From the NCBI GenBank assembly GCA_030390025.1, contig JASTWF010000338.1:372001-436000 (forward strand): 64,000 nucleotides of DNA, read 5' to 3'. Position 1 is the first letter of the stretch. Each line of letters opens with the position of its first letter. A program made the position numbers and the translations under genes. The notes below the pieces were generated by a model, which ran no database searches, had not been told where the DNA came from, and saw only the letters and a program-made list of their open reading frames with translations. This document shows, one piece after another, positions 77 to 57,164 of the stretch. Origin of the DNA: Squalus acanthias (Eukaryota).

Positions 77-1343
77 GCTATTAGAAGGGGAGGATTTACA
101 GACGGGAAACTCAAACCAAACATCACATCAAACATCAACAAACTTAACTCAAACATCACATCAAACATCAACTCAAACCAAACAACACAGACATCTGACA
201 GAGTCACTCCATTCATCAGGACCTGAATATCATCGGCCTTTGAATGTGGAAGGAGAAATGTTTGTCTGTTCTGTCTGTGGGAAAAGATTTCAAACATCAG
301 TGTGACTGGAAAAGCACCGAGACACACACACCCGAGTGAGAGTGTTCCAGTGCACTGACTGTGGAAAGAGCTTTAACCAGTTACACAGCCTGAAAAAACA
401 TCGCACCGTTCACAGAGGGGAGAAACCGTACACGTGTTCTGTATGTGGACGAGGCTTCAACTGATCGTCCAACCTGGAGAGACACAAGGACACCCGCACC
501 ACGGAGAAACCGTGGAAATGTGGGGACTGTGGGAAGGGATTCAATTACCCATCCCAGCTGGAAACCCATCGACGCAGTCACACTGGGGAGAGACCGTTCA
601 CCTGCTCCGTGTGTGGGAAGGGATTCACTAAATCATCCCACCTTCTGACACACCGGCGTATTCACACTGGGGAGAGGCCGTTCACCTGCTCCGTGTGTGG
701 GAAGGGATTCAGTCTGTTATGTAACATGCTCAGACACCAAGCTGTTCACACTGTTGGCACACAGTTTAATAGCTCCGTGTGTGGGAATGAATTCACTCAA
801 TCATATAACCTGCTGAAACACCAGCAAGTTCACACTGACGAGAGTCTGTTGAAATGTTCTAACTGTGTGAAGTGCTTTAAAAGCTGTGAGGAACTGATTA
901 AACACCTGGGCGTTCACACTGGGGAGAGATCGTTCACTTGCTCCCTGTGTGGGAAGGGATTCACTAACTCCTCCAGGCTCACTGAACACCAACTTGTTCA
1001 CACTGATAAGAGACCATTTAAATGTTCTGACTGTGAGAAGAGCTTTAAAAGCAAAAAGTATCTGTTCAGACACCAACATACTCACACAGGGGAGAGGCCG
1101 TTCACCTGCTCCGTGTGTGGGAAGGGATTCACTCAGTCATCCACCCTGCTGAGACACCAGCATGTTCACACTGGGGAGAGGCCGTTCAGCTGCTGTGTGT
1201 GTGGGAAGGGATTCACCCGTTCATCCAGCCTGCTGAGACACCAGCGAGCTCACACTGGGGAGAGGCCGTTCACCTGCTCTGAGTGTGGGAAGGGATTCGC
1301 CCGTTCATCCAGCCTGCTGACACATCAGCGAGTTCACAAGTGA
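77..1343 (+). CDS. C2H2 zinc-finger gene, coding exon (9 intact + 1 degenerate finger downstream of two in-frame TGA codons); possibly a pseudogene
   Basis: Splice acceptor ttttacag ends at 76. One reading frame runs to TGA 1341-1343, with CxxC-12-HxxxH fingers and TGERPF linkers. In-frame TGA at 303-305 and 462-464; ACG at 501 where a paralogue has ATG. Confidence 0.8.
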
Positions 1344-39055: not shown

Positions 39056-39894
39056 CTTTATTGAACTATCTTGCATAAGATCTGAAATGTTATTTTCTGT
39101 ATCATGTAACATTTTTTGTATCCGATTTAGTAAATAATCCTCCACACATATTGCATGTGATAGGCTTTGAAATATTCTGATCTTTGTGATTGTCATTGCT
39201 GTTTTTGATGATCTTGTAGATTTAATCTCTTGTTACTAACATACCTTGTACTATTTCTTTAATGGAGATATTTGTTTAACATACTTCCTTTATCAGGTCA
39301 TCAGCTCCTGCATTGACCCCTGTCAACAATCCTTAGTTAGGGGCTGGGGTTCGGGTGTAGGTTCAGGTGTTAGTGGTTGTGGTTTGTGGTTATTGGTTAG
39401 GATTGTGGTTAGTGGTTGGGGGTAGTCAATAGGATATTAAGCTGAGGAGACAGTGATTGAGGTTAGACACCATTATTGACAATGCCAGTGTCAGTGGTCG
39501 TGTCCTTTCTCATTTCATGATTTTCAACCTCATGCAGACGAGTCACAAAACAGCCTCACGAATTGTTCATTCAAGGAACCTTCTTTCCTGTGTAGGCCTC
39601 ATTTCCTCCCTTCTTTCACATCTCTACATTTCTCACAGAAAAATACATCAGGGACATTAGATTTTGGGATTTTGGGACAAGAACAGGCAGATCCAGGTGT
39701 TGTGCTGGTTACATCCAATCATTGGCCTGCCTGAAAAGGGCTTGTGACAATAACCTGTCACCAGGCCCCAACAGTCGCCATCTGATTCCACCGTCATATC
39801 TTCATCCATTACCCGCCTTTCACCCTCACAGGAGCTGATTTCACCACCATGACCATTCCCCATACTGAGGCTCTCTGATTCTCATTTTATAGAC

Positions 39895-40365
39895 TCAGTG
39901 TAAGTGGTCCCTGGATTTGGTGCCTCAGTGTAACTGAAACCTGGATTTGTAGTCTTAGTATAAGTGGTCCCTGGATTTGGTGTCACACTGTAAGTGGTCA
40001 CTGGATTTCGTGTGTCAATGTAAGTGGTTCCTGGATTTGGTGTCACACTGTAAGTGGCCCCTGGATTTGGTGTCTCAGTGTAAGTGATCCCTAGATTTTG
40101 TGTCACTGTGTAAGTGGTCCCTGGATTTGGGGCCACAGTGTTGGCCTTGGATTTGGTGTCACGGTGTAAGAGACCCCTGGAATTGTTGTCTCAGAGTAAG
40201 TGGTCCCTGGATTTTGTGTCACATTGTAAGTGGTCCCTGGATTTGGTGTCACAGTGTAAGAGATCCCTGACTTTGGTGTCTCAATGGAAGGGGTCCCTGG
40301 ATTTGGTGTCTTACTGTAAGTGGTCCCTCGATTTGGGGTCACGGTGTAAATGGTCCCTGGATTTG
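39895..40365. repeat. 30-bp minisatellite, ~15 copies
   Basis: Unit gtaagtggtccctggatttggtgtcacact. Confidence 0.9.
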
Positions 40366-40732
40366 CTGTGAGGCTGTGATTGAAGGTTCAGTGCACAGGG
40401 GCGGGGGGCGGGTCCTGGGGTTAGGAATCTTTCACCCGCCAACATTGACATCATTGGGTGATTGCCCACGGGGTTTAAATCTCTGGCAGGTTTGTGTTTC
40501 AACAGCACTTCCTCATTGGAACTGAGTGCAAACCCGCAGCCCAGCAATGTGTTCAGCACAGAATGATCCCACACAAATCTATTCCCCATTAACACTGTCC
40601 ATATTAATTCACCAGAAACAGCCCAGTGCCCGCAAGAAACGGCAGCCCCGCATCTGACATCAGTTAAACATACAATTCAAAATATTGTAAAGAGAAAATA
40701 AACAACATTATAGTTCAACAGAGTCTATTAAT

Positions 40733-42175
40733 TGTAGAATTCGCAATTATCGCGATTTCATTTTAATAAGGAGAAAACACAAGTTTCATTCAAAACAGCT
40801 TTTATTTCAGCGGAATGCTGTCAGGTTTAAATTGGACACAAGCAGCCTGTAAAATGGCCGCCGCACCGCGTGACAGAACATTCGAGACTTTTTCAGCAGA
40901 CAGACAAGATGGCGTTCCAATAAACATTTTTGCAGGATCGATAACGATTCAGCACAGTGAAGACGTTACACAGGACATTATGGGTTTACAGTATAAACAT
41001 CGATACTGGAATCGGTCTCCCAGGTACAAAGGAAAGCCATCAAGGGCCCATCCAAAGGACATTAATATGTAAACTCCCAACGGCTCTACGATGAGAGAGC
41101 CGTTAGCAGGTAGTTATACAGGACATTTGGAAGCCCCAAACCCCTCCAGGGGGAACACCGACCGATTTAACAATGGGAGACGTATTAGCAGGTACTCAAA
41201 CATTCAGGAGTAGCCCCGAAACCCATTAAAGACAGAGATCACCCATACAGGACTTTTTGGGCGCCAAACCTTAAACAAAAGAATGGACATTATAGTTGGG
41301 CGGGAAACGGAAGAACTGTGCACTATAATTGCAGGCCCAAACCGTCCATTCGCTCTCTTGCTCTCTTGCTCTTGACTCTTGGTTCTTGCTCCTGCCTCGT
41401 GTTCGTGACTCTTGCCGCTTGCCGCTGTTATCATCGTGGCTGCTCCTGGGTAAAAGACTGTTGCAAAGACCTATGTTGGTAGCTGGCAGCGGAACCGAAG
41501 GCCCGGGATGAGATGAGATGAGATGAGATGAGAGGAGAAGAGAAGAAGACCTTATCCATCGCCACGAGGTCTTCACTACAGCGGACGGTCCAGCCGACTG
41601 ACCGAGCAGCAGAAGCAGTAAACAAGTGGGACCAGGAGATCTCCTGACCAACACGTGGGTGCTGCGGTGGAAAACATCCGATCAGCTATTCGGGATTTCT
41701 CCGAGTTATTACGAGTGGTGAGCATGAGTCTCGGGATCCTACGAAGCTAGTTTTAGGATAGTTATTGATAGGGGAGGGTTTTAAAGTAAGGATATTTGTA
41801 ATGTGTGCCCTATTTACGTTGTGCTGGTCGTTCCTCGTTTCCCTAAGAGTGATTATAACTGTTTGTAAGATTGTACTGTCATTAATCTGTGCATATGACA
41901 TGTATTTCATAATTTTAAGTATCATGCAATAAAGATTTTCCATTTCGTACCGTTCAAACCAAGTCTACATGAGTTTTATCTCCATTTCTGCTCTCGCATC
42001 TAAGTCCAGTGTCTAGAACCGTAAGGGAGAGTGATTCGAACCACTCACAGGGGTGTCTAGTGTTCCCAGACTGGCTGGAGACCAGGCCTAGACCCGCACT
42101 GACATACAGGCTGCACAGAGCCGCGTGAATCTCACAGGCTACGAGACACGCAGGGTCAGGAGAGTATCCCTTACA
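40733..42175 (+). repeat. 5' LTR (1443 bp)
   Basis: TGTAGAAT...CCCTTACA; YY1-like motifs ~40851 and ~40905, TATAAT 41324, AATAAA 41928. Confidence 0.95.
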
Positions 42176-42179
42176 GAAA

Positions 42180-43991
42180 ATGGCGCCCGCGGCAGGACGC
42201 TGGCAGCGAGAGGGTAGTGTGTTAGATTTTGGAATGACTGTACGAAATGTGATGCAGGAAAAGATAGCGGATTACGTATTTGGAAAGGTTAATCTAACGA
42301 AAAGGTGGATAAGCGAACTGTTAGCGGATAAGAGTCCACTAGAGGCAGCTGAAAGATGGACGGATAGTAAGGAGCATAAAAAGGCAGTTGAGAAAGCAGT
42401 CTGGCTTATGTGCTACAAAAGGCAGGTCCAGATTTCTAACCAGACCAATACAGCGCTAACCGCTCGAATCAAGCAGTTAGAGGAGGAAATGGAGGAGAAG
42501 GTTTCTGGAGGGGAGGTGCTCATTAAGAGTTTAAATGAGTTACGCCAGGAAAGCCAGGAAGTCTCCAGCTACCTTAAAACAAGGGTAGAGTATCTCGAGT
42601 GCCAGATCACTGAAGCAAAATTAAACGAGAATAGGATGAAGGACAGATGTAACCGTCAAGCTGCCCAGATAAGAACTCAAGAAGAGAGCTTAATGGGGGT
42701 TAGGTCGGCGTATAAGTTGGCCCTTGAGGATAAGTTTCAGGGAGCCGACCATAGCGCCTGCGAAAAAGAGATAGAGAGCCTCAAAAGGGCCGTGAATAAT
42801 GCGAACGGCATGGTGTGCCTTATTAATCCGTCGGCACGCCAGCCGCTAGTAAATGAGAGATTTAGAAATTCCCCACCAAGTAAAGCAGAAGAAGTAGTAG
42901 CCACTGCGCCCTCCGCGCCACCCAGCTATTCAGAAACCTGGGTTAGGGAGGAAGCAACGGAAGAAGCGAAAGAGCCCGTTGAAAAAGAGGTAGAAAAGGG
43001 ATCGTTGTATCCAGTAACGGGGATTAAAAGGGGCCCAAGCAGAAACGGTGGGGAAGAACCGGGGGATCTCCTCGGACAGCTGGTGTTGCCTCACAGTTCA
43101 CACCAGCTGAGGGCCATGATAAACCACGTAAGGAAGCTGACCGAGATAGACGACCCTTCCGTACATTTTAGGGAAGTTGAGCAAGCCGCAGCCATCAACG
43201 GCTGCGATGATGGGGAGACAGCAAAAATGCTGCTGTTCTCTTTAGATAGCTCGGTCCTTCAGTGTCTCTCAGGCGATAGCAAGAGGGGTAATAAAAGTTA
43301 TGAGGAATTGAAAAATGAGGTCCTAGAAGTAGTGGGAGCGAACGACGGAGGTCCGTTTGCTAGAGTGGGACAGACAGTGCAGATGGAGGGAGAACCCCCG
43401 AAGGTTTTTGCCGACAGGCTGTGGCCAGTATATGAGCGCAGCTGTCTAGGTGCGCCCGAGCGCGAAGATGTGGAAGGCGCCGCTTTAATTCATTGGCTTA
43501 GGTGCATAATAGCCAACAGTTTACCAGCCGTTAGAGAGCAGGCAAAAGCCTGGTTCGATCCCAATGACCTCAACCTTACGGAAGAGTCGGTCTTGAATCG
43601 ACTCACGTTAGGTTACCGTAACATAAGGGGTATGGCAACACGTCCCTTTAAGGGAAGAGTACATGAGGTACGACCCGCAGCCCCGACTCAAAGAGAGTGG
43701 CATCAGGAGGGTAATCGCGCCCCACCGGCAAGCAATGCCTGTTACGGGTGTGGGAAGACAGGGCACTGGCGCAAGCACTGCAGGAACCCTTGGAAGGATT
43801 CCAAGGATAAGAATCCCGCGGTCCGAGCCCAGGCGCCTGTCCCGGCTAAGGAAGCAAAGGTACCCACCTCTCCCGAAGACCTCGAAGCAGTGTTAGGAGT
43901 CATGCGCAAGATGGTTTTAAATGCGCGTGGACAGGTGGCGGTCGCAACCGGCCCCGTAGGTGCCGCAGGACCGTCTAATAGTGCCCCATGA
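42180..43991 (+). CDS. gag: Gag polyprotein (coiled coil, late domain, capsid-like region, CCHC knuckle)
   Basis: 603-aa ORF; PSAPPSY at 42909-42929; CYGCGKTGHWRKHC at 43740-43781. The true start could be ATG 42180 or a downstream ATG (~42234). Confidence 0.9.
   Translation: MAPAAGRWQREGSVLDFGMTVRNVMQEKIADYVFGKVNLTKRWISELLADKSPLEAAERWTDSKEHKKAVEKAVWLMCYKRQVQISNQTNTALTARIKQLEEEMEEKVSGGEVLIKSLNELRQESQEVSSYLKTRVEYLECQITEAKLNENRMKDRCNRQAAQIRTQEESLMGVRSAYKLALEDKFQGADHSACEKEIESLKRAVNNANGMVCLINPSARQPLVNERFRNSPPSKAEEVVATAPSAPPSYSETWVREEATEEAKEPVEKEVEKGSLYPVTGIKRGPSRNGGEEPGDLLGQLVLPHSSHQLRAMINHVRKLTEIDDPSVHFREVEQAAAINGCDDGETAKMLLFSLDSSVLQCLSGDSKRGNKSYEELKNEVLEVVGANDGGPFARVGQTVQMEGEPPKVFADRLWPVYERSCLGAPEREDVEGAALIHWLRCIIANSLPAVREQAKAWFDPNDLNLTEESVLNRLTLGYRNIRGMATRPFKGRVHEVRPAAPTQREWHQEGNRAPPASNACYGCGKTGHWRKHCRNPWKDSKDKNPAVRAQAPVPAKEAKVPTSPEDLEAVLGVMRKMVLNARGQVAVATGPVGAAGPSNSAP
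42181..42198 (+). promoter_or_regulatory. Primer-binding site
   Basis: TGGCGCCCGCGGCAGGAC, 5 nt after the 5' LTR; TGG is complementary to the tRNA CCA end. Confidence 0.7.
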
Positions 43992-46900
43992 CTAGAACCA
44001 GCACAGCCCGTCTACCTGTGTCCGCTCAGCTATGATGCGTGGAGGCGACCTGTGGTGGAGATGGAGGTAGAGAAACAAAAGGGCAGTTATCTGTTGGACA
44101 CGGGAGCTTCTTGCACCATAATCCATACAGATGACCCTTTTGACTCGCCGCTATCTACCAAGGTCCCATTCACGCTAGCAGGGTTCACAGGGAAAGAACA
44201 GGCTGGCACGTTTTCCCTCCCGCTATCCATTCGTTTAGGAACACTTCGCTTTAAGTGGAAGTGTATACTGATGGCATGGCAAAAGGGGGGTGGAAGAGGT
44301 ATTCTCGGGTCCGATCTGCTAGCGGGACACGGGATCCTCGTGGACCTCAGAAATCACTGTCTCTGGGGGGCTAAAGGGGAAAAAGGCGAGGTAATGGTGA
44401 TTCAAGGGGAGGAAGAAACAGGGGTCCTGTGTACCGTACAGCCATCCGGAGGCTATGACCTCAGGCTTATGGTCGCAGATGTCCCAACGGACATGCAGAC
44501 GTACGTGACAGATAATATGCACGCGTTTGCAACCCACAAGCACGATTGTGGGAGGGTGGTCGGGTTTGAGGTCAGCGTAGATGGGGACCCCATGACCCGA
44601 CCCCAAAAGCAGTATAACTTCCCCAAAGAAGCAGAACCCGATATGGAGGCAGCAATGTCTTCCTTGGTGCAGCAGGGCGTGTTGAGGCCGATAGCCACAC
44701 ACGTGAACTCCCCATTATGGCCGGTTAGGAAGCCGGATAATTCGTGGAGAGCCACGGTGGACTACAGAGTCCTTAACAGTAACATCCCCGCCTGCGCGCC
44801 CACAGTAGCAGCAGTTGCTGACCTAATAGGGAGCATCCCAGCGTCCGCGACCACGTTCACGGTGCTGGATATCTCGAACGGTTTTTGGTCCATCCCGCTG
44901 CGGCGAGAGGACCAGTACAAGTTTGCCTTTACGTTTAAAGGGCAACAGTACACGTGGAACTGCTTGCCACAAGGTTTCCACAATAGCCCCAGTATTTTTC
45001 ACCAGTGTATGGCAGGGAGTTTAAAGGAGTTTAGTCAGCCCAATCAGATAGTACAGTATGTGGATGATTTGCTCCTATTTACGGACTCAAGGGAGGAGCA
45101 CGGACCACTGCTGGACGAGTTATTGGAGCTGTTAGCGAGAAAGGGTTTTAAAGTAAACCCAAAGAAAGCACGTATCGGTCAGCAGGAAGTAAAATTCCTG
45201 GGACTGACCCTACGCGCTGGGGAAAGAGCCATAGACAAAGCAAGGAGGGAGTCGGTGCAAGAATTACCGATTCCCAACAACGTAAGGGGTGTGAGGTCCT
45301 TCTTGGGACTGACCGGTTACTGCAGGGATTTTATCGAGGATTATGCGGCCACAGCGGCGCCGCTCCTCCGACTCCTCCATAAGGGAGTAGAGTGGCTTTG
45401 GGACGAGGGCTGCCAAGCAGCCTTCGAGAAGTTAAAAAGGGATCTGCAGACCGCGCCAGCCTTAGGGGCCATAGATGGGGGGAAGGAGTTTTTCCTGGAG
45501 GTAGCTGCCAGCGGAGACAGCTTAAGCGCCGTGCTGCTCCAAGAGCGTCACGGCAAGCTGAGGCCGGTTGTCTATTCATCCAGGGTATTAACGGATGTGG
45601 AGAGAAGTTTTTCCAATTGCGAAAGGCACCTTTTAGCCACGCATTGGGCTGTGAAAAGATCAGCGATCTTCACAGGGCTCTCTCCCATCACTCTCCTCAC
45701 ACATCACACACCAACTAAGATGCTTCTGGATGGGAGGATTAAAGACGGGACCGTAAGCAGCGCACGCATTGCGCGTTGGACCCTTCTTCTCTCCCAGTTG
45801 GACATCAGAGTAAAAGGTCTTTGCGAGCCCAGGCTTGCGGCCAATTTGGTATACCCCGGTACAGCCCACCGGTGTTCGGTGGAGGGGGTGTGGGACGTCA
45901 ACATAGGTTTACGGGCCGGGATACATCCCACTGGGCGCGAGATTTATGTTGATGGGTCTAGCACAGTATCTGCTGGCGAGCGACTCACAGGGTGTGGAGT
46001 TTATGACCCTGCGGCAGACCTTGCCCTGGCGATCAAGCTCCCTAGCACCATGAGCGCGCAGCAGGCTGAGCTGTCTGCCGTGGTGTACGTGGTAACCCAC
46101 CCAGACATTTTCCCAACCCCATACACGATTTGCTCGGACAGTATGTTCACCTGCAATTCGTGTACGGAATACCTGGCCATTTGGTCCCGCCGTGGATACA
46201 CCTCCGCGGACGGGCGACCTTTAACGGTAAAGCCCTTGCTGGAAAAGATCTTAGCAGCAGCAGTAGGGGAGGAAGGGGAGATTTTCATCCATAAGGTGAA
46301 AGCTCACTCCTCCACAGAGCCCCGTGGGGAGGGCAACCGGCAGGCGGATGCGCTAGCCAGGGAGGGTGCCCGCGACGGTACTTTCTGGAACCCCTATAGA
46401 ACCGGACCCATAGCAGCGGTCCGAGGTGGGGACGGGAATACCGGGAACACCAGGGTAGCATTGCCCCTAGACCTTAAGACCGTCCAAGCCCAGGATCCCG
46501 CCCTAAAAGCAGTCCTAAAAACGATTGCTGAGGGGAGGCAGGTAGAAGGTCCGTACAGTACGGCAACCCTCTCAGTTAAGGAAGGCATGCTGTTCCGCGA
46601 GGAGCAGTGGGTTGTGCCGCAGCAGCACAGGAGGGAATTCCTCCAGTTGGCTCACGAGGGACCAGGGGCAGGGCACCCCGGGCCCGAGGTTACCTGGCAA
46701 CGGGTAGAGCAAGCGGGATGGTGGCCAGGGCTCAGGGAACAAGTCCGCGAGTTCTGTGCAAACTGTCTTGTGTGCGCTGCAAACAACCCAGACCCCCAGA
46801 AAAGGAAGGTGCCCATGGGACACGTAAGAAGGGTAGAGGGACCATGGCAGTCGATACAGATCGACTATATAGGACCCCTGCCCACCACCCAGGGAGGTTA

Positions 46901-48494
46901 TAAGTACTGCCTCGTCCTGGTGGATGTGTTTTCCAAGTGGGTGGAAGCCTTCCCTTGTCGAACAGCTACGGCACTGGGTACAGCAAAAATCTTGGTCCGG
47001 GAAGTGTTCTCGCGGTGGGGACTCCCCCGTTTTGTGGAGTCAGACCAAGGGAGTCATTTCACCGGCCAGGTGATGCAGAACACCCTCATGCTTTTGGGCA
47101 TTGAAGGGAAGTGGCACGTAGCACACAATCCCCAGTCATCCGGGATTGTTGAACGTATGAACCGGACCCTGAAGGAGAAATTGAGGAAAGAGACTAGGAA
47201 CTCGCCCCAAAAATGGGCGGAAGTTCTGCCTTTAGTCCTCATGGGGGTCCGGGCCAGTCAGTCAAAAAGTACGGGGTACTCCCCGCACGAGGTAATGACC
47301 GGCAGGCTCATGCGAACCCCCACCCATGTGCTAGCCCCGGTGCTCACTGAGGGTCAGCTTCAAGAGATCAGCAGGGACAAGTTCGCCCAAACTCTCTTGG
47401 AGCGCCTGAAGCAAGTTTATGAGCAGGCGGCTGGGAACATGGGAAGGCAGCACCAGGGCAATCGCTTGTTGCTGGAACCCCGCAAAACGCGGGAGTGGGA
47501 AGTAGGAGACCAGGTCATGGTCAGAAACTACGCCAGAGTAGGGAGTCTGGAACCACTGTATATGGGACCCTACAACATTGTAGACAAGGCAAGTCCCATG
47601 GTTTACGCCGTAAAAGTACCTCGGCGCACTAAGTGGTTCCACATAAACCAATGTAAACTGTACCAGCCGGGTGCGCAAGGGAAAACTACAGGGGTAAATC
47701 CCGCCAACGGGAAAACACAGCCCCAGGTAGGACCACAAGGCACACAGGCAGGCGTAGCAGCTTGCATCAGGGGAAGGGACATCCCGGACGATCATGCAGC
47801 GTTTTTCTGGAGTTGGGGGTTAGATGACGAGGACCCCAGGGTACCCTGGTCAGATGAGGATAGTGCAGATGAGCATAGTGATGATGACGGGTGGTTTCAC
47901 AGGAACGGTCTGGAAGGATTGGGGCCGCTAGGTAGAGATCCATACGGGGTGGACACACAAGCTGCAGGTCCCGACAGCAGGAGGAAGGAGCTAGAGGAGG
48001 CCGGGCCAGCCGCTATGTGGTTCCCAGAGGTGTGGCCGCCCGCTGTAAACGTCCAGTCCTCAGGGGAGGCAGAGTTCGCGAGTGAAGGGCCGCCTGCTGG
48101 GCCGAGCAGGGCGGGGCCCCGAACTGCCAGCCCCGAGGTTAGGGAGGCGGAGTCAGCGGAGGCGGGGCTGGCGCCTGTGATGGAACCCCAGGTCATCCCG
48201 TTGAAGGTCTCGGGACCCGGTCCGTCCGTCACGGAGCCCCCGCCCATAGCAGTTCCCCGTAGGTCAAGCAGAGCACCCCAGCCCAGGAAGACGTGGTCAG
48301 GTCCACAGGATGCCCCAGGGCGTAAGTTTCAGATTAAGATAACCCGGGTAGAGACAGGCCACATCGAAGCAGTAACAGGCTGCGGCAGATCAGAGGAAAG
48401 GGTCAGCGCAGCAACAGGCTGCGGCAGATCAGAAGGAAGGGTCAGTGCCCTCCCACCGTCGGGAAGAGCTCGCAGCAGCCTTCTCAGGATTTAA
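43992..48494 (+). CDS. pol: Pol (protease, RT, degenerate RNase H/tether, RNase H, integrase, long C-terminal tail), in frame with gag
   Basis: LLDTGAS (~44097); LPQGFHNSP and YVDD (45057); IYVDGSS..AQQAEL..SDS..GNRQAD; HHCC; IDYIGP / SDQGSHF / GIVERMN; GPY. Confidence 0.95.
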   Translation, partial: LEPAQPVYLCPLSYDAWRRPVVEMEVEKQKGSYLLDTGASCTIIHTDDPFDSPLSTKVPFTLAGFTGKEQAGTFSLPLSIRLGTLRFKWKCILMAWQKGGGRGILGSDLLAGHGILVDLRNHCLWGAKGEKGEVMVIQGEEETGVLCTVQPSGGYDLRLMVADVPTDMQTYVTDNMHAFATHKHDCGRVVGFEVSVDGDPMTRPQKQYNFPKEAEPDMEAAMSSLVQQGVLRPIATHVNSPLWPVRKPDNSWRATVDYRVLNSNIPACAPTVAAVADLIGSIPASATTFTVLDISNGFWSIPLRREDQYKFAFTFKGQQYTWNCLPQGFHNSPSIFHQCMAGSLKEFSQPNQIVQYVDDLLLFTDSREEHGPLLDELLELLARKGFKVNPKKARIGQQEVKFLGLTLRAGERAIDKARRESVQELPIPNNVRGVRSFLGLTGYCRDFIEDYAATAAPLLRLLHKGVEWLWDEGCQAAFEKLKRDLQTAPALGAIDGGKEFFLEVAASGDSLSAVLLQERHGKLRPVVYSSRVLTDVERSFSNCERHLLATHWAVKRSAIFTGLSPITLLTHHTPTKMLLDGRIKDGTVSSARIARWTLLLSQLDIRVKGLCEPRLAANLVYPGTAHRCSVEGVWDVNIGLRAGIHPTGREIYVDGSSTVSAGERLTGCGVYDPAADLALAIKLPSTMSAQQAELSAVVYVVTHPDIFPTPYTICSDSMFTCNSCTEYLAIWSRRGYTSADGRPLTVKPLLEKILAAAVGEEGEIFIHKVKAHSSTEPRGEGNRQADALAREGARDGTFWNPYRTGPIAAVRGGDGNTGNTRVALPLDLKTVQAQDPALKAVLKTIAEGRQVEGPYSTATLSVKEGMLFREEQWVVPQQHRREFLQLAHEGPGAGHPGPEVTWQRVEQAGWWPGLREQVREFCANCLVCAANNPDPQKRKVPMGHVRRVEGPWQSIQIDYIGPLPTTQGGYKYCLVLVDVFSKWVEAFPCRTATALGTAKILVREVFSRWGLPRFVESDQGSHFTGQVMQNTLMLLGIEGKWHVAHNPQSSGIVERMNRTLKEKLRKETRNSPQKWAEVLPLVLMGVRASQSKSTGYSPHEVMTGRLMRTPTHVLAPVLTEGQLQEISRDKFAQTLLERLKQVYEQAAGNMGRQHQGNRLLLEPRKTREWEVGDQVMVRNYARVGSLEPLYMGPYNIVDKASPMVYAVKVPRRTKWFHINQCKLYQPGAQGKTTGVNPANGKTQPQVGPQGTQAGVAACIRGRDIPDDHAAFFWSWGLDDEDPRVPWSDEDSADEHSDDDGWFHRNGLEGLGPLGRDPYGVDTQAAGPDSRRKELEEAGPAAMWFPEVWPPAVNVQSSGEAEFASEGPPAGPSRAGPRTASPEVREAESAEAGLAPVMEPQVIPLKVSGPGPSVTEPPPIAVPRRSSRAPQPRKTWSGPQDAPGRKFQIKITRVETGHIEAVTGCGRSEERVSAATGCGRSEGRVSALPPSGRARSSLLRI

Positions 48495-48777
48495 AGGGGC
48501 CGCCCTGAGAACGGGCGGCATTGTAAAGTTATTAGTTTAAGGTTTTAAGTTTTAGTTTAAAGTTTTAAGTAGTTTTAATAAGTTTAAGTTTGTAGTGGTT
48601 TTAACAGATAACGACAAATGATGGGAGTTTTAAGGCCAGGTTTAGAGGAAGTCTGTTCAGCAAAAGTTGAAGTTTACGTGAGGCGAGGTCAGGGGACCCG
48701 CTCACCCTTCACAAAAGCCAGAGACTTTTTGCGAGGCTGGCTACCTCATTCTATCTGATCACAGGAACCAAGGAAGG

Positions 48778-51128
48778 ATGGAACGACTCATAGTATTGCT
48801 CGTGGCAATCGGATGTGGATTGGCCTATCGGGGCCTCACCAAGGATGTCGTGGTGTTTGGATGTTCCGGGGACACGGCCCCCATCGCGGTGGATGGGACC
48901 GGGAGACGGAAGGCAGAAGGGACCAGCACCTATTTCCACAAGGGAAGGTGGCCAGGATGGCTGGGAACGAACTCAACGGAGTATTCCAGCACATCGGGGT
49001 TCGCCTACAAAGAGACTTCTTTAATGTGCCCCAAAGTACGGATCATCGCACCCAGGATCAGCGTCACCGTCGGCAAACGGATTTGTTTGACTTGCAGTGG
49101 GAATGTCCCATTGAGCCGATGGTGGTGGCTGCGAAAGCTGAGCAAAACTATGAGGAACTCTTCGGTTGAGTGGGAGCGACTGGGTAATAATACCCATCGG
49201 ACAATTACGGGGACAGATGGACAAGTGAAAGTCTGTTGGGACAAATGGTGGGAACCAGATGAGGGGATTTATGTTTGTATGTGGGGGTCAAAGTACGTTT
49301 GCCCCAAAGGCATCTCCATATTCTTTATTAACCAGTGGCAGGATAACGGACAGGGGATGAGGTGGGATGCGAGCACCAGGGGGTGCGGAGCCCCATTCTC
49401 CCCGATCCCAGTAAATGCCACTGAGCTCATTACGCGCCCACGCAAAGCCCCGCCCACGATTCCGGTAGTTCTAACTGAGGAAGAAGGGTGCCCTAAAACT
49501 AGTAAGGGACCCGGGAACGGTTTGGTACTGGTCCCCACAGACCAGATACTATTTCAGGGGTGCATTACGCGGTGGCCTCGGTGATTTTAAATCTCACTGA
49601 GGTACGGTTACCAGAGTGGTGCCCCAAAAAGACGGAACAGTTGTACCAGGTCCTGTTGACCAAGATGTTCAGGCAGTTTTACGAGTTCGATTTCGCGGAA
49701 ATTGATAAGACAAGTTTATACACCGCACCGCAGGAAGTTTTGGACCAAGTTGGGAGGCAAAGAAGGGGTTTGGTGAACGATGCGTTCACTGCTTTTAACA
49801 CAGGGACATCTGTGGTCAACGCTCTAGACAGTGTGGAGCTGCAGACCCAGGTTAATGGTTTAAAAACACAGTTAAAGGATATTCTCACAGATGAGAATAA
49901 AGTGGTAGGGTCGGGTCTGCACGAGGACCAAGCCATGACACTACACTTAAAAGAGATTATAGCAGAGCTGGAGAAACATGCGCGTACGGTAAATGCCCTG
50001 ATTAGGGAAGATCGGAATGCATCCGATCAAGCTGCGCAGAACGAGGTGTGCGTGCTTTACGGGGCGTGGTTACTGGGCGAGGGCCGCAGTAATTTGGAGG
50101 ATTTAAAACAAGGTTTGGTCCCGTCCTGGATAAGTAACAAACACCTGCGGGCGCTCCACCCTTTTCAGAATGCATTAAGTCCGTGCCAGCTCAGGCTAGC
50201 TTCAGAAGCTTACCCAGTCCCCGTGGACTGCGGACGTTCAAACCATACTATTATGGGAATAGTATTACGCATGCCGGTTTTGGGCAACACAGCAAAGCCC
50301 GCCCCGGTGTATCGGGTAGAGAACATTGGTGTCATTCAGGGGGGAGCCCACATTCGTTATGCAGCGGTTCCACCTTACGTCATCCGCTGGGAGCAAACGA
50401 TGACAGGTACAGATCTCTCTGGTTGTCGTGGCAGGGGAGCACACATAATACTGTGCCCCCAGCACTTGAATGCCTTTTTAACACCACAGTGCGGGTTCAG
50501 AACGGCTGGCGCCAAGTCCATGAATTGCACCATGGAGGCAATGGCACAAGATCATGTGCCTCCGCAGGTAGCATACATCGGGGGTGGAACATATTGTGTT
50601 ACCACTGCAGCGCAACACTACCAGCATGGAAACCGTAGCCGGTGTCCGGTGAGTGACAGCAGTTTCTGTTTTAAACCCAGGGCTGAAGTTCAAGTAGCAC
50701 AACAGCGAATTATCCCAATCCCTGAACCATCCACTGTTCACCTCACAGTAAAAGAGAATTTTACCGACTTGCAGCGATTTGTCGCACATTTTGGGTACCT
50801 CATTCCCCCTCTCCCTGAGCATTTAACCAAACTTCTGAAAGCCGTCGCGGTGTCACAAAAGCATTTTTATACCTTAGAACAGAAAACCGTCGAGATAGGT
50901 ACAGACATTTTGGACATAGTGGTTCCACCGTGGTGGAATCTGTTCACGAATATTGAAGTGCCCTCATGGGTCAGAATAGCCTCCCACATTTTAGTCGTCT
51001 GTCAAGTGTTTATTGTAGTATACCTTTTGTTTATACATTGTAAAAGAGACAAGCGCCTCACCAAGCATGAGAACACGGGAGAGTGGCGAGAACGTTACGT
51101 GCGCGTGCACGATGAGAGCGCAGTGTAA
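48778..51128 (+). CDS. env: Envelope glycoprotein (signal peptide, Ig-like domain, furin site, fusion subunit, TM), split by a -1 frameshift near 49557-49560
   Basis: ORFs 48778..49584 and 49560..51128 join into ~783 aa if one G is added to the GGGG run. RQRR|GL at 49755-49766, TM ~50976-51035, candidate splice acceptor AG at 48763-48764. Confidence 0.85.
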
Positions 51129-51541
51129 TGGGAAAACGGCGTCACTCCCGCTCGCCACGTGCGCCGCGGAAGTTTGTACTCATTGTAAATACGTTGGAAA
51201 CTCGACATGTTTAAGAGTTGGGATTTGTTTATTTTGGTGATGGTGTTGATTGTTTGGTTTTTTGGGTTTTGTTTTTCCTTTCCCTGAATAAAAGATAAAT
51301 ATACAGGTGATGCGTGAGGTATCGGCCTGGTTACGCCGGGAAGGAAAACAAGTGGTGTAAGTTTAAGGGCAAATGATGCCTATGGTGATATAAAATGTGA
51401 TTTTTCTTGGGAAATAAGGACGACACAGAGACCCTAGTGAAGTTAAAATTTTATGGGATTAATTTACTGGATTCGGAGTGAAATCGAGATAAGATTGCTC
51501 ACCACTGAGTTTTTGATACGATAAGCGGAGTTATTCGCATC

Positions 51542-51553
51542 AACAGGAGGGAC
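51542..51553 (+). promoter_or_regulatory. Polypurine tract
   Basis: AACAGGAGGGAC immediately before the 3' LTR. Confidence 0.7.
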
Positions 51554-52982
51554 TGTAGAATTCGCAATTATCGCGATTTCATTTTAATAAGGAGAAAACA
51601 CAAGTTTCATTCAAAACAGCTTTTATTTCAGCGGAATGCTGTCAGGTTTAAATTGGACACAAGCAGCCTGTAAAATGGCCGCCGCACCGCGTGACAGAAC
51701 ATTCGAGACTTTTTCAGCAGACAGACAAGATGGCGTTCCAATAAACATTTTTGCAGGATCGATAACGATTCAGCACAGTGAAGACGTTACACAGGACATT
51801 ATGGGTTTACAGTATAAACATCGATACTGGAATCGGTCTCCCAGGTACAAAGGAAAGCCATCAAGGGCCCATCCAAAGGACATTAATATGTAAACTCCCA
51901 ACGGCTCTACGATGAGAGAGCCGTTAGCAGGTAGTTATACAGGACATTTGGAAGCCCCAAACCCCTCCAGGGGGAACACCGACCGATTTAACAATGGGAG
52001 ACGTATTAGCAGGTACTCAAACATTCAGGAGTAGCCCCGAAACCCATTAAAGACAGAGATCACCCATACAGGACTTTTTGGGCGCCAAACCTTAAACAAA
52101 AGAATGGACATTATAGTTGGGCGGGAAACGGAAGAACTGTGCACTATAATTGCAGGCCCAAACCGTCCATTCTGTCTCTTGACTCTTGGTTCTTGCTCCT
52201 GCCTCGTGTTCGTGACTCTTGCCGCTTGCCGCTGTTATCATCGTGGCTGCTCCTGGGTAAAAGACTGTTGCAAAGACCTATGTTGGTAGCTGGCAGCGGA
52301 ACCGAAGGCCCGGGATGAGATGAGATGAGATGAGATGAGAGGAGAAGAGAAGAAGACCTTATCCATCGCCACGAGGTCTTCACTACAGCGGACGGTCCAG
52401 CCGACTGACCGAGCAGCAGAAGCAGTAAACAAGTGGGACCAGGAGATCTCCTGACCAACACGTGGGTGCTGCGGTGGAAAACATCCGATCAGCTATTCGG
52501 GATTTCTCCGAGTTATTACGAGTGGTGAGCATGAGTCTCGGGATCCTACGAAGCTAGTTTTAGGATAGTTATTGATAGGGGAGGGTTTTAAAGTAAGGAT
52601 ATTTGTAATGTGTGCCCTATTTACGTTGTGCTGGTCGTTCCTCGTTTCCCTAAGAGTGATTATAACTGTTTGTAAGATTGTACTGTCATTAATCTGTGCA
52701 TATGACATGTATTTCATAATTTTAAGTATCATGCAATAAAGATTTTCCATTTCGTACCGTTCAAACCAAGTCTACATGAGTTTTATCTCCATTTCTGCTC
52801 TCGCATCTAAGTCCAGTGTCTAGAACCGTAAGGGAGAGTGATTCGAACCACTCACAGGGGTGTCTAGTGTTCCCAGACTGGCTGGAGACCAGGCCTAGAC
52901 CCGCACTGACATACAGGCTGCACAGAGCCGCGTGAATCTCACAGGCTACGAGACACGCAGGGTCAGGAGAGTATCCCTTACA
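51554..52982 (+). repeat. 3' LTR (1429 bp)
   Basis: Matches the 5' LTR by eye except for a 14-bp length difference in a CTCTT-repeat patch. Confidence 0.95.
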
Positions 52983-52997
52983 TAATGGCCAGTGAAA

Positions 52998-55900
52998 ACC
53001 CCTCACCCCAACTCCTCTTTCACCCCTACTCACCAACTCCCCTCACCCCAACTCCTCTTTCACCCCTACTCTCCAACCCCCTCACCGCAACTCCTCTTTC
53101 ACCCCTACTCTCCAACTCCCCTCACCCCAACTCCTCTTTCACCCCTACTCTCCAACCCCCTCACCGCAACTCCTCTTTCACCCCTACTCTCCAACTCCCC
53201 TCATCCCAACTCCTCTTTCACCCCTACTCTCCAACCCCCTCACCCAAACTCCTCTTTCACCCTAACTCTCCAACCCCCCTCACCCCAACACCTCTTTCAC
53301 CCCTACTCTCCAACCCCCCTCACCCCAACTCCTCTTTCACCCCTACTCTCCAATCCCCCTCACCCCAACTCCTCTTTCACCCCTACTCTCCAAACCCCTC
53401 ACCCCAACTCCTCTTTCACCCCTATTCTCCAGCTCCCCTCACCCCAACTCCTCTTTCACACCTACTCTCCAACCCCCCTCACCCCAACTGCTCTTTCACC
53501 CCTACTCTCCAAACCCCTCACCCCAACTTCTCTTTCACCCCTACTCTCCAACCCCCCTCACCCCAACTCCTCTTTCACCCCTACTCTCCAACCCCCCTCA
53601 CCCCAACTCCTCTTTCACCACTACTCTCCAACCCCCCTCACCCCAACTCCTCTTTCACCCCTACTCTCCAACCCCCCTCACCCCAACTCCTCTTTCACCC
53701 CTACTCTCCAACCCCCCTCACCCCAACTCCTCTTTCACCCCTACTCTCCAACCCCCCTCACCACAACTCCTCTTTCACCCCGACTCTCCAAACCTCCTCA
53801 CCCCAACTCCTCTTTCACCCCTACCCTCCAAAACCCCTCACCCCAACTCCTCTTTCACCCCTACTCTCCAACCCCCCTCACCACAACTCCTCTTTCACCC
53901 CGATTCTCCAAACCTCCTCACCCCAACTCCTCTTTCACCCCTACCCTCCAAACCCCTCACCCCAACTCCTCTTTCACCCCTACTCTCCAACCCCCCTCAC
54001 CCCAACTCCTCTTTCACCCCTACTCTCCAGCTCCCCTCACCCCAACTCCTCTTTCACCCCTACTCTCCACACCCCTCACCCCAACTCCTCTTTCACCCCT
54101 ACTCTCCAACCCCCCTCACCCCGACTCCTCTTTCACCCCAACTCTCCAACACCCCTCACCCCAACTCCTCTTTCACCCCTACTCTCCAACCCCCCTCACC
54201 CCAACTCCTCTTTCACCCCTACTCTCCAACCCCCCTCACCCCAACTCCTCTTTCACCCCAACTCTCCAACCCCCCTCACCCCAACTCCTCTTTCACCCCT
54301 ACTCTCCAACCTCCCTCACCCCAACTCCTCTTTCACCCCTACTCTCCAACCCCCCTCACCCCAACTCCTCTTTCACCCCTACTCCCAACCCCCCTCACCC
54401 CAACTCCTCTTTCACCCCTACTCTCCAACTCCCCTCACCCCAACTCCTCTTTCACCCCTACTCTCCAACTCCCCTCACCCCAACTCCTCTTTCACCCCTA
54501 CTCTCCAACCCCCCACACCCCAACTCCTCTTTCACCCCTACTCTCCAACCCCCCTCACCCCAACTCCTCTTTCACCCCTACTCTCCAACTCCCCTCACCC
54601 CAACTCCTCTTTCACCCCTACTCTCCAACTCCCCTCACCCCAACTCCTCTTTCACCCCTACTCTCCAACCCCCCTCACCCCAACTCCTCTTTCACCCCTA
54701 CTCTCCAACCCCTCACCCCAACTCCTCTTTCACCCCTACTCTCCAACCCCCTCACCGCTACTCCTCTTTCACCCCTACTCTCCAACTCCCCTCATCCCAA
54801 CTCCTCTTTCATGCCTACTCTCCAACCCCCTCACCGCTACTCCTCTTTCACCCCTACTCTCCAACTCCCCTCATCCCAACTCCTCTTTCACCCCTACTCT
54901 CCAACCCCCTCACCCAAACTCCTCTTTCACCCTAACTCTCCAACCCCCCTCACCCCATCTCCTCTTTCACCCCTACTCTCCAACCCCCCTCAACTCAACT
55001 CCTCTTTAACCCCTACTCTCCAACCCCCCTCACCCCAACTCCTCTTTCACCCCTACTCTCCAACCCCCTCACCCCAACTCCTCTTTCACCCCTACTCTCC
55101 AACCCCGCTCACCCCAACTCCTCTTTAACCCCTACTCTCCAACCCCCCTCACCCCAACTCCTCTTTCACCCCTACTCTCCAACCCCCTCACCCCAACTCC
55201 TCTTTCACCCCTACTCTCCAACCCCCCTCACCCCAACTCCTCTTTCACCCCTATTCTCCAGCTCCCCTCACCCCAACTCCTCTTTCACACCTACTCTCCA
55301 ACCCCCCTCACCCCAACTGCTCTTTCACCCCTACTCTCCAAACCCCCTCACCCCAACTCCTCTTTCACCCCTACTCTCCAACCCCCCTCACCCCAACTCC
55401 TCTTTCACCCCTACTCTCCAACCCCCCTCACCCCAACTCCTCTTTCACCCCTACTCTCCAACCCCCCTCACCCCAACTCCTCTTTCACCCCTACTCTCCA
55501 ACCCCCCTCACCCCAACTCCTCTTTCACCCTTACTCTCCAACCCCCTCACCCCAACTCCTCTTTCACCCCTACTCTCCAAACCCCTCACCCCAACTCCTC
55601 TTTCACCCCTACTCTCCAACCCCCCTCACCACAACTCCTCTTTCACCCCTACTCCCCAACCCCCCTCACCCCAACTCCTCTTTCACCCCTACTCTCCAAC
55701 CCCCCTCACCCCAACTCCTCTTTCACCCCTACTCTCCAACCTCCCTCACCCCAACTCCTCTTTCACCCCAACTCGCCAACCAACCTCACCCCAACTCCTC
55801 TTTCACCCCTGCTCCCAACCCCCTCACCCCAACTCCTCTTTCACCCCTACTCTCCAACTCCCCTCACCCCAACTCCTCTTTCACCCCTACTCTCCAACCC

Positions 55901-56470
55901 CCCTCACCCCAACTCCTCTTTCACCCCTAGTCTCCAACCCCCCTCACCCCAACTCCTCTTTCACCCCTACTCTCCAACCCCCCTCACCCCAACTCCTCTT
56001 TCACCCTACTCTCCAACCCCCCTCATCCCAACTCCTCTTTCACCCCTACTCTCCAACCCCCCTCATCCCAACTCCTCTTTCACCCCTACTCTCCAACCCC
56101 TCTCACCCCAACTCCTCTTTCACCCCTACCCTCCAACCCCTCTCACCCCAACTCCTCTTTCACCCCTACTCTCCAAACCCCTCACCCCAACTCCTCTTTC
56201 ACCCCTACCCTCCAACCCCTCTCACCCCAACTCCTCTTTCACCCCTACTCTCCAAACCCCCTCACCCCAACTCCTCTTTCACCCCTACTCTCCAACCCCC
56301 AACTCCTCTTTCACCCCTACTCTCCAACCCCCCTTCACGCAAACTCCTCTTTCACCCCTACTCTCCAACCCCCAACTCCTCTTTCACCCCTACTCTCCAA
56401 CTCCTCTTTCCCACTACTCTCCAACCCCCCTCACCCCAACTCCTCTTTCACCCCTACTCTCCAACCCCCT
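52998..56470. repeat. ~40-bp C-rich satellite, ~85 copies
   Basis: Unit ccccctcaccccaactcctctttcacccctactctccaac; almost no G on the + strand. Confidence 0.95.
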
Positions 56471-57164
56471 TTCATCTTCCATTGATATTTGGAACCTGTC
56501 AGAATTTGAAAGATATTTACAAATGATTTGATTGTTTCTTAGAGTTGGGATCTTTTTTCATTCTGTTGCCTTCTGATTGAAATGAAACCGACGGTTTTAC
56601 CAGTCGGGATTTGAAAGGTATTTGTAACAGATTGTAGATGTTCTTCGATCGGGATCTTTCTCTATTCCATCCACTCGAGCAGTTGGATAACAGACTTTCT
56701 CCTGTGAATATAGAGCTGGAGTATTGGGTCGTGATGTGTTCACTTGTTCATCTTCTTGACTCTAAAAATTGAGTCTTGTGGTTTCAGACACCAGATAATC
56801 AAGCTCACAACAACAGATTGTCTTTTACTGACTTTATTAACAGCATTGGAATAATACAGACAGAGTATAGTTACCTGTCCGGAGACAGGGATAATACAGT
56901 GGATTCAGAGCTCTCTTCTCCCCAGGTCTGTTATAACAAGCTGCGGCTACACTGACGAGAGTTATACTGAACTTGTTTACTGCATTCGTGATCTGGCCCT
57001 GCTCAAAGCTGAGATATCTGTGCATTGTTCTGACTGTCACCACAAGGCTGTGTCACTATCACACAGACAACGTTTCCATGTTTCACATCTCCATCCACAG
57101 ACCATCTCTTTACACATCCCCTTCCATCCTCAATCAACATCAGCAAAATAGATTATCTGCTCAA

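Follow-up and report, generated by a model that had tools for sequence, protein, structure and literature searches.

An immunoglobulin-like domain at the N-terminus of a predicted F-type envelope protein encoded by a young endogenous retrovirus of Squalus acanthias

The window analysed here, a stretch of 64,000 nucleotides of Squalus acanthias DNA (assembly GCA_030390025.1, contig JASTWF010000338.1, positions 372,001 to 436,000 of the forward strand), contains a complete and recently integrated endogenous retrovirus (ERV) at window positions 40733-52982, which is a member of a very young, high-copy family. The envelope protein (Env) of this provirus very probably possesses an N-terminal domain with a V/I-type immunoglobulin (Ig) fold (residues 88-186), as judged from sequence profiles and a structural model, and this domain lies ahead of a body which resembles the F-type fusion proteins. 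Taken as a whole, the explanation that accounts best for these features is an Ig-bearing F-type Env equipped with a receptor-binding head, which has a slightly better than even chance of being correct.

The env gene, like the other parts of the provirus described below, lies on the + strand and is present in the window as two overlapping frames, 48778-49584 (open reading frame 1, ORF1) and 49506-51128. It begins with a hydrophobic leader, MERLIVLLVAIGCGLA (residues 1-16, 48778..48825), which is a probable signal peptide with a hydrophobic window at residues 4-22. This is followed by a conserved segment (residues 17-87, 48826..49038), delimited by alignment, to which no fold is assigned (pLDDT <50 in a first AF2 model) and in which G63, N65, S66, S70, S71, and Y77 are nearly invariant across the family alignment. 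The Ig domain comes next (49039..49335), its limits being set by profiles, an AF2 model and structure searches. An earlier sequence-only reading of this DNA had the domain in the right place, with slightly different limits (49030-49332, residues 85-185), but took it to follow the signal peptide directly, whereas some 70 conserved residues intervene. A linker of 44 residues which is proline-rich and contains cysteine (residues 187-230, 49336..49467) was defined by alignment and by the identities of the separate regions. The fusion-body core starts after it with the motif CP..GPGNGLV (49468..49584), where comparison with an open copy shows a frameshift near 49560 and seven out-of-frame codons up to the stop. 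The sequence of ORF1 (48778..49584) was found as that reading had quoted it; its last seven residues are out of frame. The remainder of env lies in the shifted frame (49560..51128) and codes for a heptad-containing and Cys-rich body, recognised by a profile match to foamy virus Env, and a short tail. Within it are a furin-like RQRR site (residues 327-330, 49755-49766), a fusion-peptide-like stretch directly after this site (GLVNDAFTAF..., 49767-49826) and a transmembrane (TM) anchor at residues 730-753 (50964-51035; hydrophobic window 730-748).

The break in the window copy is due to a single base near 49560, with residue 262 being the first to differ from an open copy. In a search of the organism's own genome (3.7 Gb), 6815 first-look candidates were obtained and 143 copies were scored, all of which are 97-100% identical. 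By a hand count from the table of copies, 117 of the 143 lie in open frames of at least 801 codons and 26 are shorter. One copy, taken arbitrarily, has an ORF of 783 residues with the same ATG and stop as the env of the window, and 11 of 12 further loci (L009-L020) are open through to the end of the locus. Contigs at the break in all four public sequencing runs mapped to the stretch include a form which differs by one base and keeps the frame; this form accounts for 150.2 of 264.5 depth in run X1 and for all depth in X3, X5, and X9. As most copies are open across the break, a single Env of 783 residues contains both the Ig domain and the fusion body, a point that is close to certain, and the suggestion made from the letters alone that other copies might show the two frames to be non-contiguous was not borne out. 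Open-frame copies of Env have 10 N-glycosylation sequons and 23 cysteines. Eight of the 26 short copies (L001-L008) have the 300/340-codon frame of the window; with eight of 143 copies sharing it, the frameshifted variant must itself have been copied or duplicated.

It was also observed that near-identical env sequence (0.47-0.70 of its 31-letter words) occurs in runs X1-X14, which carry seven organism codes, so that the family would be present in several of the labelled organisms or in close relatives.

The hallmarks of an Ig domain are readily located in the sequence, and they are as previously quoted. The stretch KRICLTCSG supplies Cys103 and Cys106, WWWLRK corresponds to residues 115-120, and D161-E-G-I-Y-V-C167 falls on the F strand. 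Cys106 and Cys167 are 61 residues apart, which is within the Ig spacing of about 55-75, and hidden Markov model alignments place W115-W117 and the D/E-x-G-x-Y-x-C motif on the Ig consensus. Two disulfides are inferred, and Cys106 and Cys167 would form the canonical pair of the domain. Two of the sequons, N127 and N137, also lie inside it. With Pfam, Ig_3 is the sole match of ORF1 (E 0.12), and the domain alone gives E 0.015 and 16.2 bits. The same family is matched by all five close-family members (best E 3.9e-4) and, at E≤1, by 7 of the 15 members of a joint alignment of Ig-like modules. When the single sequence was compared with the PDB by phmmer, 10 of the 11 matches at E≤10 were Ig domains.

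Profiles gave far clearer results. A profile of five close-family members (53-73% identical) matched the IgV domain of CRTAM at E 0.0022 over profile positions 12-103. A second profile, made from seven older env lineages of the same genome, returned 47 PDB matches, all from the immunoglobulin superfamily (IgSF), with a best E-value of 2.5e-4 and with JAM-A matched over the whole domain at 3.3e-4. The joint profile of 15 modules gave 2097 PDB matches at E≤1, the best 60 of which are all IgSF; they include JAM-A (3.6e-10, the best of all), VEGFR2 (2.2e-8) and DIP-alpha (6.1e-8).

An AF2 model of residues 80-187 made with the joint alignment reached a pLDDT of 75.8 and a pTM of 0.68, and has eight to nine strands, those in residues 93-185 being A', B (ICLTCS), C (WWWLRK), C', D, E, F (IYVCMW), and G. 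The PDB matches of this model in Foldseek number at least 500 at E≤0.001, with TM-scores up to 0.69, and every one of those listed is a V-type Ig domain; VIA-align superposed the model on antibody V (VL) domains with Z 11.1 and an rmsd of 2.7 Å, 93 of 108 residues being aligned; Z is at least 8 for 992 of 997 chains. In the Atlas, the feature neighbours of the domain are Ig V/I-set clusters (0.92-0.95). The fold is accepted because the profiles are decisive, the single-sequence evidence being consistent with it but weak. The sequence-only reading had also called the domain a captured host one. An ancient host origin is indeed inferred; however, no host donor can be named, the identity to the solved Ig domains found by Foldseek being 11-20%.

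The domain is not a peculiarity of this locus. An exhaustive search of representative proteins identified 49 relatives of the Env at E≤0.001, including proteins of skate (72-75% identical), sawshark, hound shark, bamboo shark, and three frogs; word-index searches for homologs had found only three to four proteins apiece. The bamboo-shark protein P0017 is already named "Ig-like domain-containing protein" in UniRef. The S. acanthias genome itself contains 83 env matches related to P0017, which are 33-81% identical and many of which, if not most, have stops, consistent with older and diverse lineages. Twenty of these places were fetched (L022-L041), seven being kept as having a stop-free N-terminal module and 13 dropped on account of stops, frameshifts or missing cover; at least one of the older lineages, L022, has an open frame of 784 codons. 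An Ig-like module that can be aligned, and in the same position, is present in P0017, in the seven older lineages, and in the frog proteins P0022 and P0050. None of the 15 rows of the joint alignment departs from Cys106, Gly163, and Cys167, and ahead of the F strand the viral modules have in common an unusual W-x3-W pattern (as in VCWDKWW and LNWPQFW). By hhalign, the close-family group was aligned with the older-lineage group across 66 columns, strands B through F, with a probability of 56% and an E-value of 1.1e-4. Another relative, P0038, matches V-set at E 0.045, or 0.0014 with the module alone (the segment read as that of P0038). As the same layout occurs in older lineages, bamboo shark, and frogs, any capture of the Ig domain would be ancient.

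Other relatives carry a different N-terminus on the same core. P0016 and P0026 have a Cys-rich module of another kind, while in P0040 the signal peptide leads straight into the core. With Ig, another module or none found on one core, the N-terminal module appears to be exchangeable, and Ig is the form met with most often. In the close family, conservation of the Ig segment, as shown by the identities, equals or exceeds that of its flanks: 59/99 positions are identical to P0004, as against 37/71 and 21/43 in the flanks, and 64/98 are identical to P0009, as against 31/71 and 20/39.

A MAFFT alignment of four distant N-termini alone was misaligned and rejected, and a search of IMG/VR with the single Env protein P0007 gave four pattern matches and no relative. 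The sawshark gene models P0009, P0010, and P0011 fuse env pieces to host genes (ZFP2-like, Niban 1-like, and cadherin-related 5-like). These are annotation chimeras and can mislead profile searches, one of which was swamped by the zinc-finger part of P0009.

The body of the Env is, on the strength of its sequence likenesses, an F-type class I fusogen, as had been read from the letters. A profile of the env body made from 17 relatives matched foamy virus Env (8rm1, E 4.2e-5; 8rm0, E 2.4e-4) as the sole solved family, and paramyxovirus F gave no match at E≤10 among solved proteins. Its nearest neighbours by language-model features in the Atlas include Gypsy/Baculo_F clusters (0.95, 0.94), Fusion_gly (0.93) and CoV_S2 (0.91), with 12 of the 30 nearest clusters belonging to the Fusion_gly set (0.93), and the relative P0042 matches Baculo_F at E 0.0011. 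Foamy virus Env is described as having domains I-III in common with paramyxovirus F and pneumovirus F (PMC11468914), and it is this F-likeness, together with the Atlas neighbours, on which the F-type designation is based. The layout is that of this type, with a leader (1-16), RQRR (327-330), a fusion peptide and a C-terminal TM anchor. Domain II of F proteins and of foamy virus Env is itself an internal IgSF fold (PMC11468914). In the present Env the domain I/II region aligns separately, profile positions 206-395 with residues 56-250 of the 8rm1 chain, which places the internal region of the body far downstream of the Ig module.

The product of the open env copies would be a type I membrane glycoprotein of 783 residues, in which the signal peptide is followed by a 70-residue segment, the Ig domain, the 44-residue Pro-rich linker and the F-type core. 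No second env-like ORF or other glycoprotein gene is present between pol and the 3′ long terminal repeat (LTR) in the window ORF list. Env must therefore both bind and fuse, and its N-terminal extension is the best candidate for the head, the preference resting on the Ig domain being the only recognisable fold in that extension. It is proposed tentatively, at a little under even chances and from sequence comparisons, that the Ig-bearing extension acts as the receptor-binding head of the surface subunit, and that engagement of a cell-surface ligand by this head would release the fusion core.

A number of points weigh against this interpretation. No single sequence passes the curated Pfam cut-off for Ig, the window domain scoring 16.2 as against 30 bits, and by our arithmetic even the best family member (Ig_3, E 3.9e-4) is below it. 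The single-sequence PDB matches all have E≥0.22. The first AF2 model (residues 1-261, family alignment) was unusable with a pLDDT of 39, and the good model was built on an alignment assembled from Ig-like modules and is not independent of the profile evidence. The group-to-group hhalign probability is only 56%, and hhalign of the family profile with the single proteins P0017, P0022, and P0038 found no significant match (probabilities of 1.4, 0.5, and 0.2%). For the body, PF00523 (Fusion_gly) was not matched at E≤1 by P0002, P0007 or nine relatives. Lastly, the most N-terminal element of the core in F proteins and foamy virus Env is described as lying in the membrane-proximal domain II (PMC11468914), and a core N-terminus close to the membrane does little to support a simple receptor head at the apex.

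This geometry bears also on the alternative which survives best, although it is unlikely, namely that the Ig domain is real and has a structural or shielding function. It may sit close to the trimer's base and pack on the core, holding the prefusion state, or it may carry glycans or make Ig-Ig contacts from one trimer to its neighbours. If F proteins and foamy virus Env are a guide, the part of the core that comes first behind the linker ought to sit in domain II, next to the membrane, and an N-terminal hairpin at domain II of foamy virus Env has been suggested to connect trimers in a lattice (PMC11468914). The two sequons inside the domain and its good conservation, with no sign of hypervariability, would suit such a function as well. 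However, a linker of 44 residues could let the Ig module reach any part of the trimer, and P0016, P0026, and P0040 show that the core folds without Ig, and this is more in keeping with an exchangeable targeting head than with an integral brace.

It is improbable that the Ig domain has the immune system of the host as its main target, serving as a decoy or mimicking a ligand in the manner of the Ig proteins which large DNA viruses encode. Among viral structures, the model is indeed most like Ig proteins of herpes-, pox-, and adenoviruses (including IL-1 receptor-like, CD200-like, E3 CR1, and RL11 family proteins). These, however, are proteins that stand alone, whereas the Ig domain here is built covalently into the sole envelope protein and is found at an unchanged position in many lineages, and no likeness to any particular immune ligand was found. 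There is even less to be said for a chance motif, or for a misreading of the internal Ig-like domain II of a fusion protein. The single-sequence scores, all sub-threshold, and the failure of the first model would be in keeping with it, but profile E-values down to 3.6e-10, the structural match over 93 of 108 residues and the separate alignment of the downstream domain I/II region to 8rm1 largely refute this and leave it very improbable. That a host exon was joined to env by misassembly or local rearrangement, as the fusion of env pieces to host genes in public gene models might suggest, is scarcely credible given the contiguous arrangement inside LTRs with a 4-base target duplication, and it is refuted by the 143 scored copies on many contigs and by the contigs of the four public runs.

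Of the known systems, the Env of lokiretroviruses has much in common with that of the S. acanthias element. It is described as nearer to Mononegavirales F than to the usual retroviral Env; signal peptide, R-x-K/R-R site, fusion peptide, coiled coil and TM anchor are all present in it, and it is likewise accompanied by a pol with dual RNase H; related env proteins are found here in frogs including Xenopus tropicalis, which is a listed lokiretrovirus host (PMC7947760). The two differ in that PF00523 is matched at 2.2e-7 by Loki-Str (PMC7947760) and is without a match at E≤1 here, and in that the Env model published in PMC7947760 names no Ig domain. The word "immunoglobulin" does not occur in the lokiretrovirus papers examined, including the main text of PMC7947760 and PMC9040795, and literature searches, whose scope did not extend to bioRxiv supplements, found no paper on the fusion of an Ig domain to a retroviral Env of the F type. 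The supplement of PMC7947760 gives three genomes screened and none positive for Orectolobiformes (Chondrichthyes). The element is best described from its sequence as loki-like but unclassified. In comparisons with solved structures its pol is about equally near to Ty3, MLV-type reverse transcriptase (RT), and foamy virus PR-RT, which would be compatible with the sister position to all other retroviruses that marks lokiretrovirus RT.

Foamy virus Env gp130 (8RM0/8RM1) is likewise a retroviral Env in which a receptor-binding module is added to an F-fold fusion core. Its receptor-binding domain, however, has 327 residues and another fold, and is inserted in domain III beside the furin site (PMC11468914), whereas the added module here is an Ig domain of about 100 residues at the extreme N-terminus. 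The F proteins of paramyxo-, pneumo-, and baculoviruses and gypsy Env have the same succession of signal peptide, cleavage site, fusion peptide, and TM anchor, but their only Ig fold is that of the internal domain II, and paramyxoviruses have a separate attachment protein. The F2 part before the cleavage site is around 80-100 residues long, and some 310 residues precede that site in the Env described here. The original statement that F proteins have no Ig domain thus holds for an additional N-terminal V-like module and not for domain II, which has an IgSF fold in the account of PMC11468914.

Among host proteins, the V/I-set domains of JAM-A, CRTAM, FCRL, contactin, IgLON, and VEGFR2 provide the best profile and fold matches, with the same Cys-Trp-Cys core and D/E-x-G-x-Y-x-C motif, but they are just 11-20% identical and the W-x3-W before the F strand is an oddity of the viral modules. 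CrocERV31 of crocodilians is an ERV which also has host-derived Ig-like domains in the env position; in that case env is described as replaced by a whole nectin3 mRNA that codes for three Ig domains and has about 76% identity to its host counterpart (PMC4299795), whereas here a single and highly diverged Ig domain is in frame with a working-looking fusogen. In the BFVD, the nearest viral structures are the herpes-, pox-, and adenovirus Ig proteins (26 matches at E≤0.001), which differ in being separate immunomodulatory or adhesion proteins and not parts of fusogens. No retroviral or Mononegavirales envelope protein is among the 50 matches listed from that search.

The provirus is bounded by a 5′ LTR (40733..42175) and a 3′ LTR (51554..52982), each beginning with TG and ending with CA and each defined by alignment to the other. 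The pair shows no mismatches and three gap openings across an alignment of 1443 columns, and a 4-base target duplication flanks the provirus on both sides. A stretch resembling a primer binding site was read from the sequence a few bases 3′ of the 5′ LTR (42181..42198), and may be of the tRNA-Lys type by its resemblance. No RNA run is among the 14 listed, and in the contigs of the four public runs no leader-to-env joint was found; the sole joint in those contigs is a 154-base skip inside gag, seen in two runs.

The gag gene extends as an open frame from the first ATG after the primer binding site to its stop (42234..43991), and codes for one CCHC knuckle with a weak match to zf-CCHC (E 0.09). 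The N-terminal third of its product (window 42234-43100) looks like a long coiled coil which is rich in E, K, and Q and has no Pfam match; an SMC-like gene has been reported in some lokiretroviruses (PMC7947760). The pol gene lies directly past the gag stop and in the same frame (43992..48494), as established by Pfam and PDB matches. It codes for a protease, an RT, a Ty3-type RNase H-like domain, an RNase H and an integrase, followed by a long low-complexity tail. The Pfam matches are RVT_1 (9.8e-36), RT_RNaseH_2 (2.1e-21), RNase_H (2e-19), Integrase_H2C2 (1.6e-17) and rve (5.6e-15), and the dual RNase H consists of RT_RNaseH_2 at residues 470-558 and RNase_H at residues 650-793. Of solved structures, Ty3 (5e-72), MLV-type RT (5e-70) and foamy PR-RT (1.9e-63) are about equally close. 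The tail (window 47300-48494) has around 390 residues past the integrase core and no coverage by any Pfam family. It begins acidic, becomes rich in Pro and Ser, and terminates with two copies of TGCGRSE.RVSA as a direct repeat. A CCHC-knuckle gag and an in-frame pol are not foamy-like. Classification as an endogenous foamy virus, which the PDB match of the env body to foamy virus Env had suggested, was rejected, since the gag of this element has the knuckle and its pol follows gag in frame.

Tandem repeats were observed on both sides of the provirus. Just upstream of the 5′ LTR (39814-40425) lies an array of a 30-base tandem repeat (12 overlapping copies, 226-nt unit). Directly 3′ of the provirus (52900-56530) is a tandem repeat of about 3.6 kb, in which several + strand frames are open and encode recurring peptides, of which PLSPLLSNPPHPNSSFTPTLQ is an example; it has the look of satellite DNA and not of a gene.

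Two ways of targeting an F-type fusion protein are known, these being a separate attachment protein, as in paramyxoviruses, and a receptor-binding domain inserted in the core, as in foamy viruses. An N-terminal V-like Ig module on an F-type retroviral Env would be a third way to attach the targeting part. Large DNA viruses commonly carry Ig domains of the host type, which are rare in retroviral envelope proteins. The occurrence of this layout in sharks, skates, and frogs, together with the alternative modules, may provide a natural series on receptor swapping over a constant fusion core. It is also of interest that loki-like proviruses with an F-type env are abundant and young in a cartilaginous fish, as against none reported in the three shark genomes screened in PMC7947760.

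It is possible, though doubtful, that a whole clade of F-type retroviral envelope proteins in cartilaginous fishes and amphibians finds its receptor with an exchangeable N-terminal head, usually V-like and derived from the IgSF, and perhaps mimicking a JAM-, nectin- or CRTAM-like Ig adhesion molecule of the host. If this is true, the present family, with its identical LTRs and more than 100 open env frames, would be a very recently active member of the clade in a host group that had been searched before without success, and a self-targeting F-like fusogen would have arisen by the addition of a host cell-adhesion domain.

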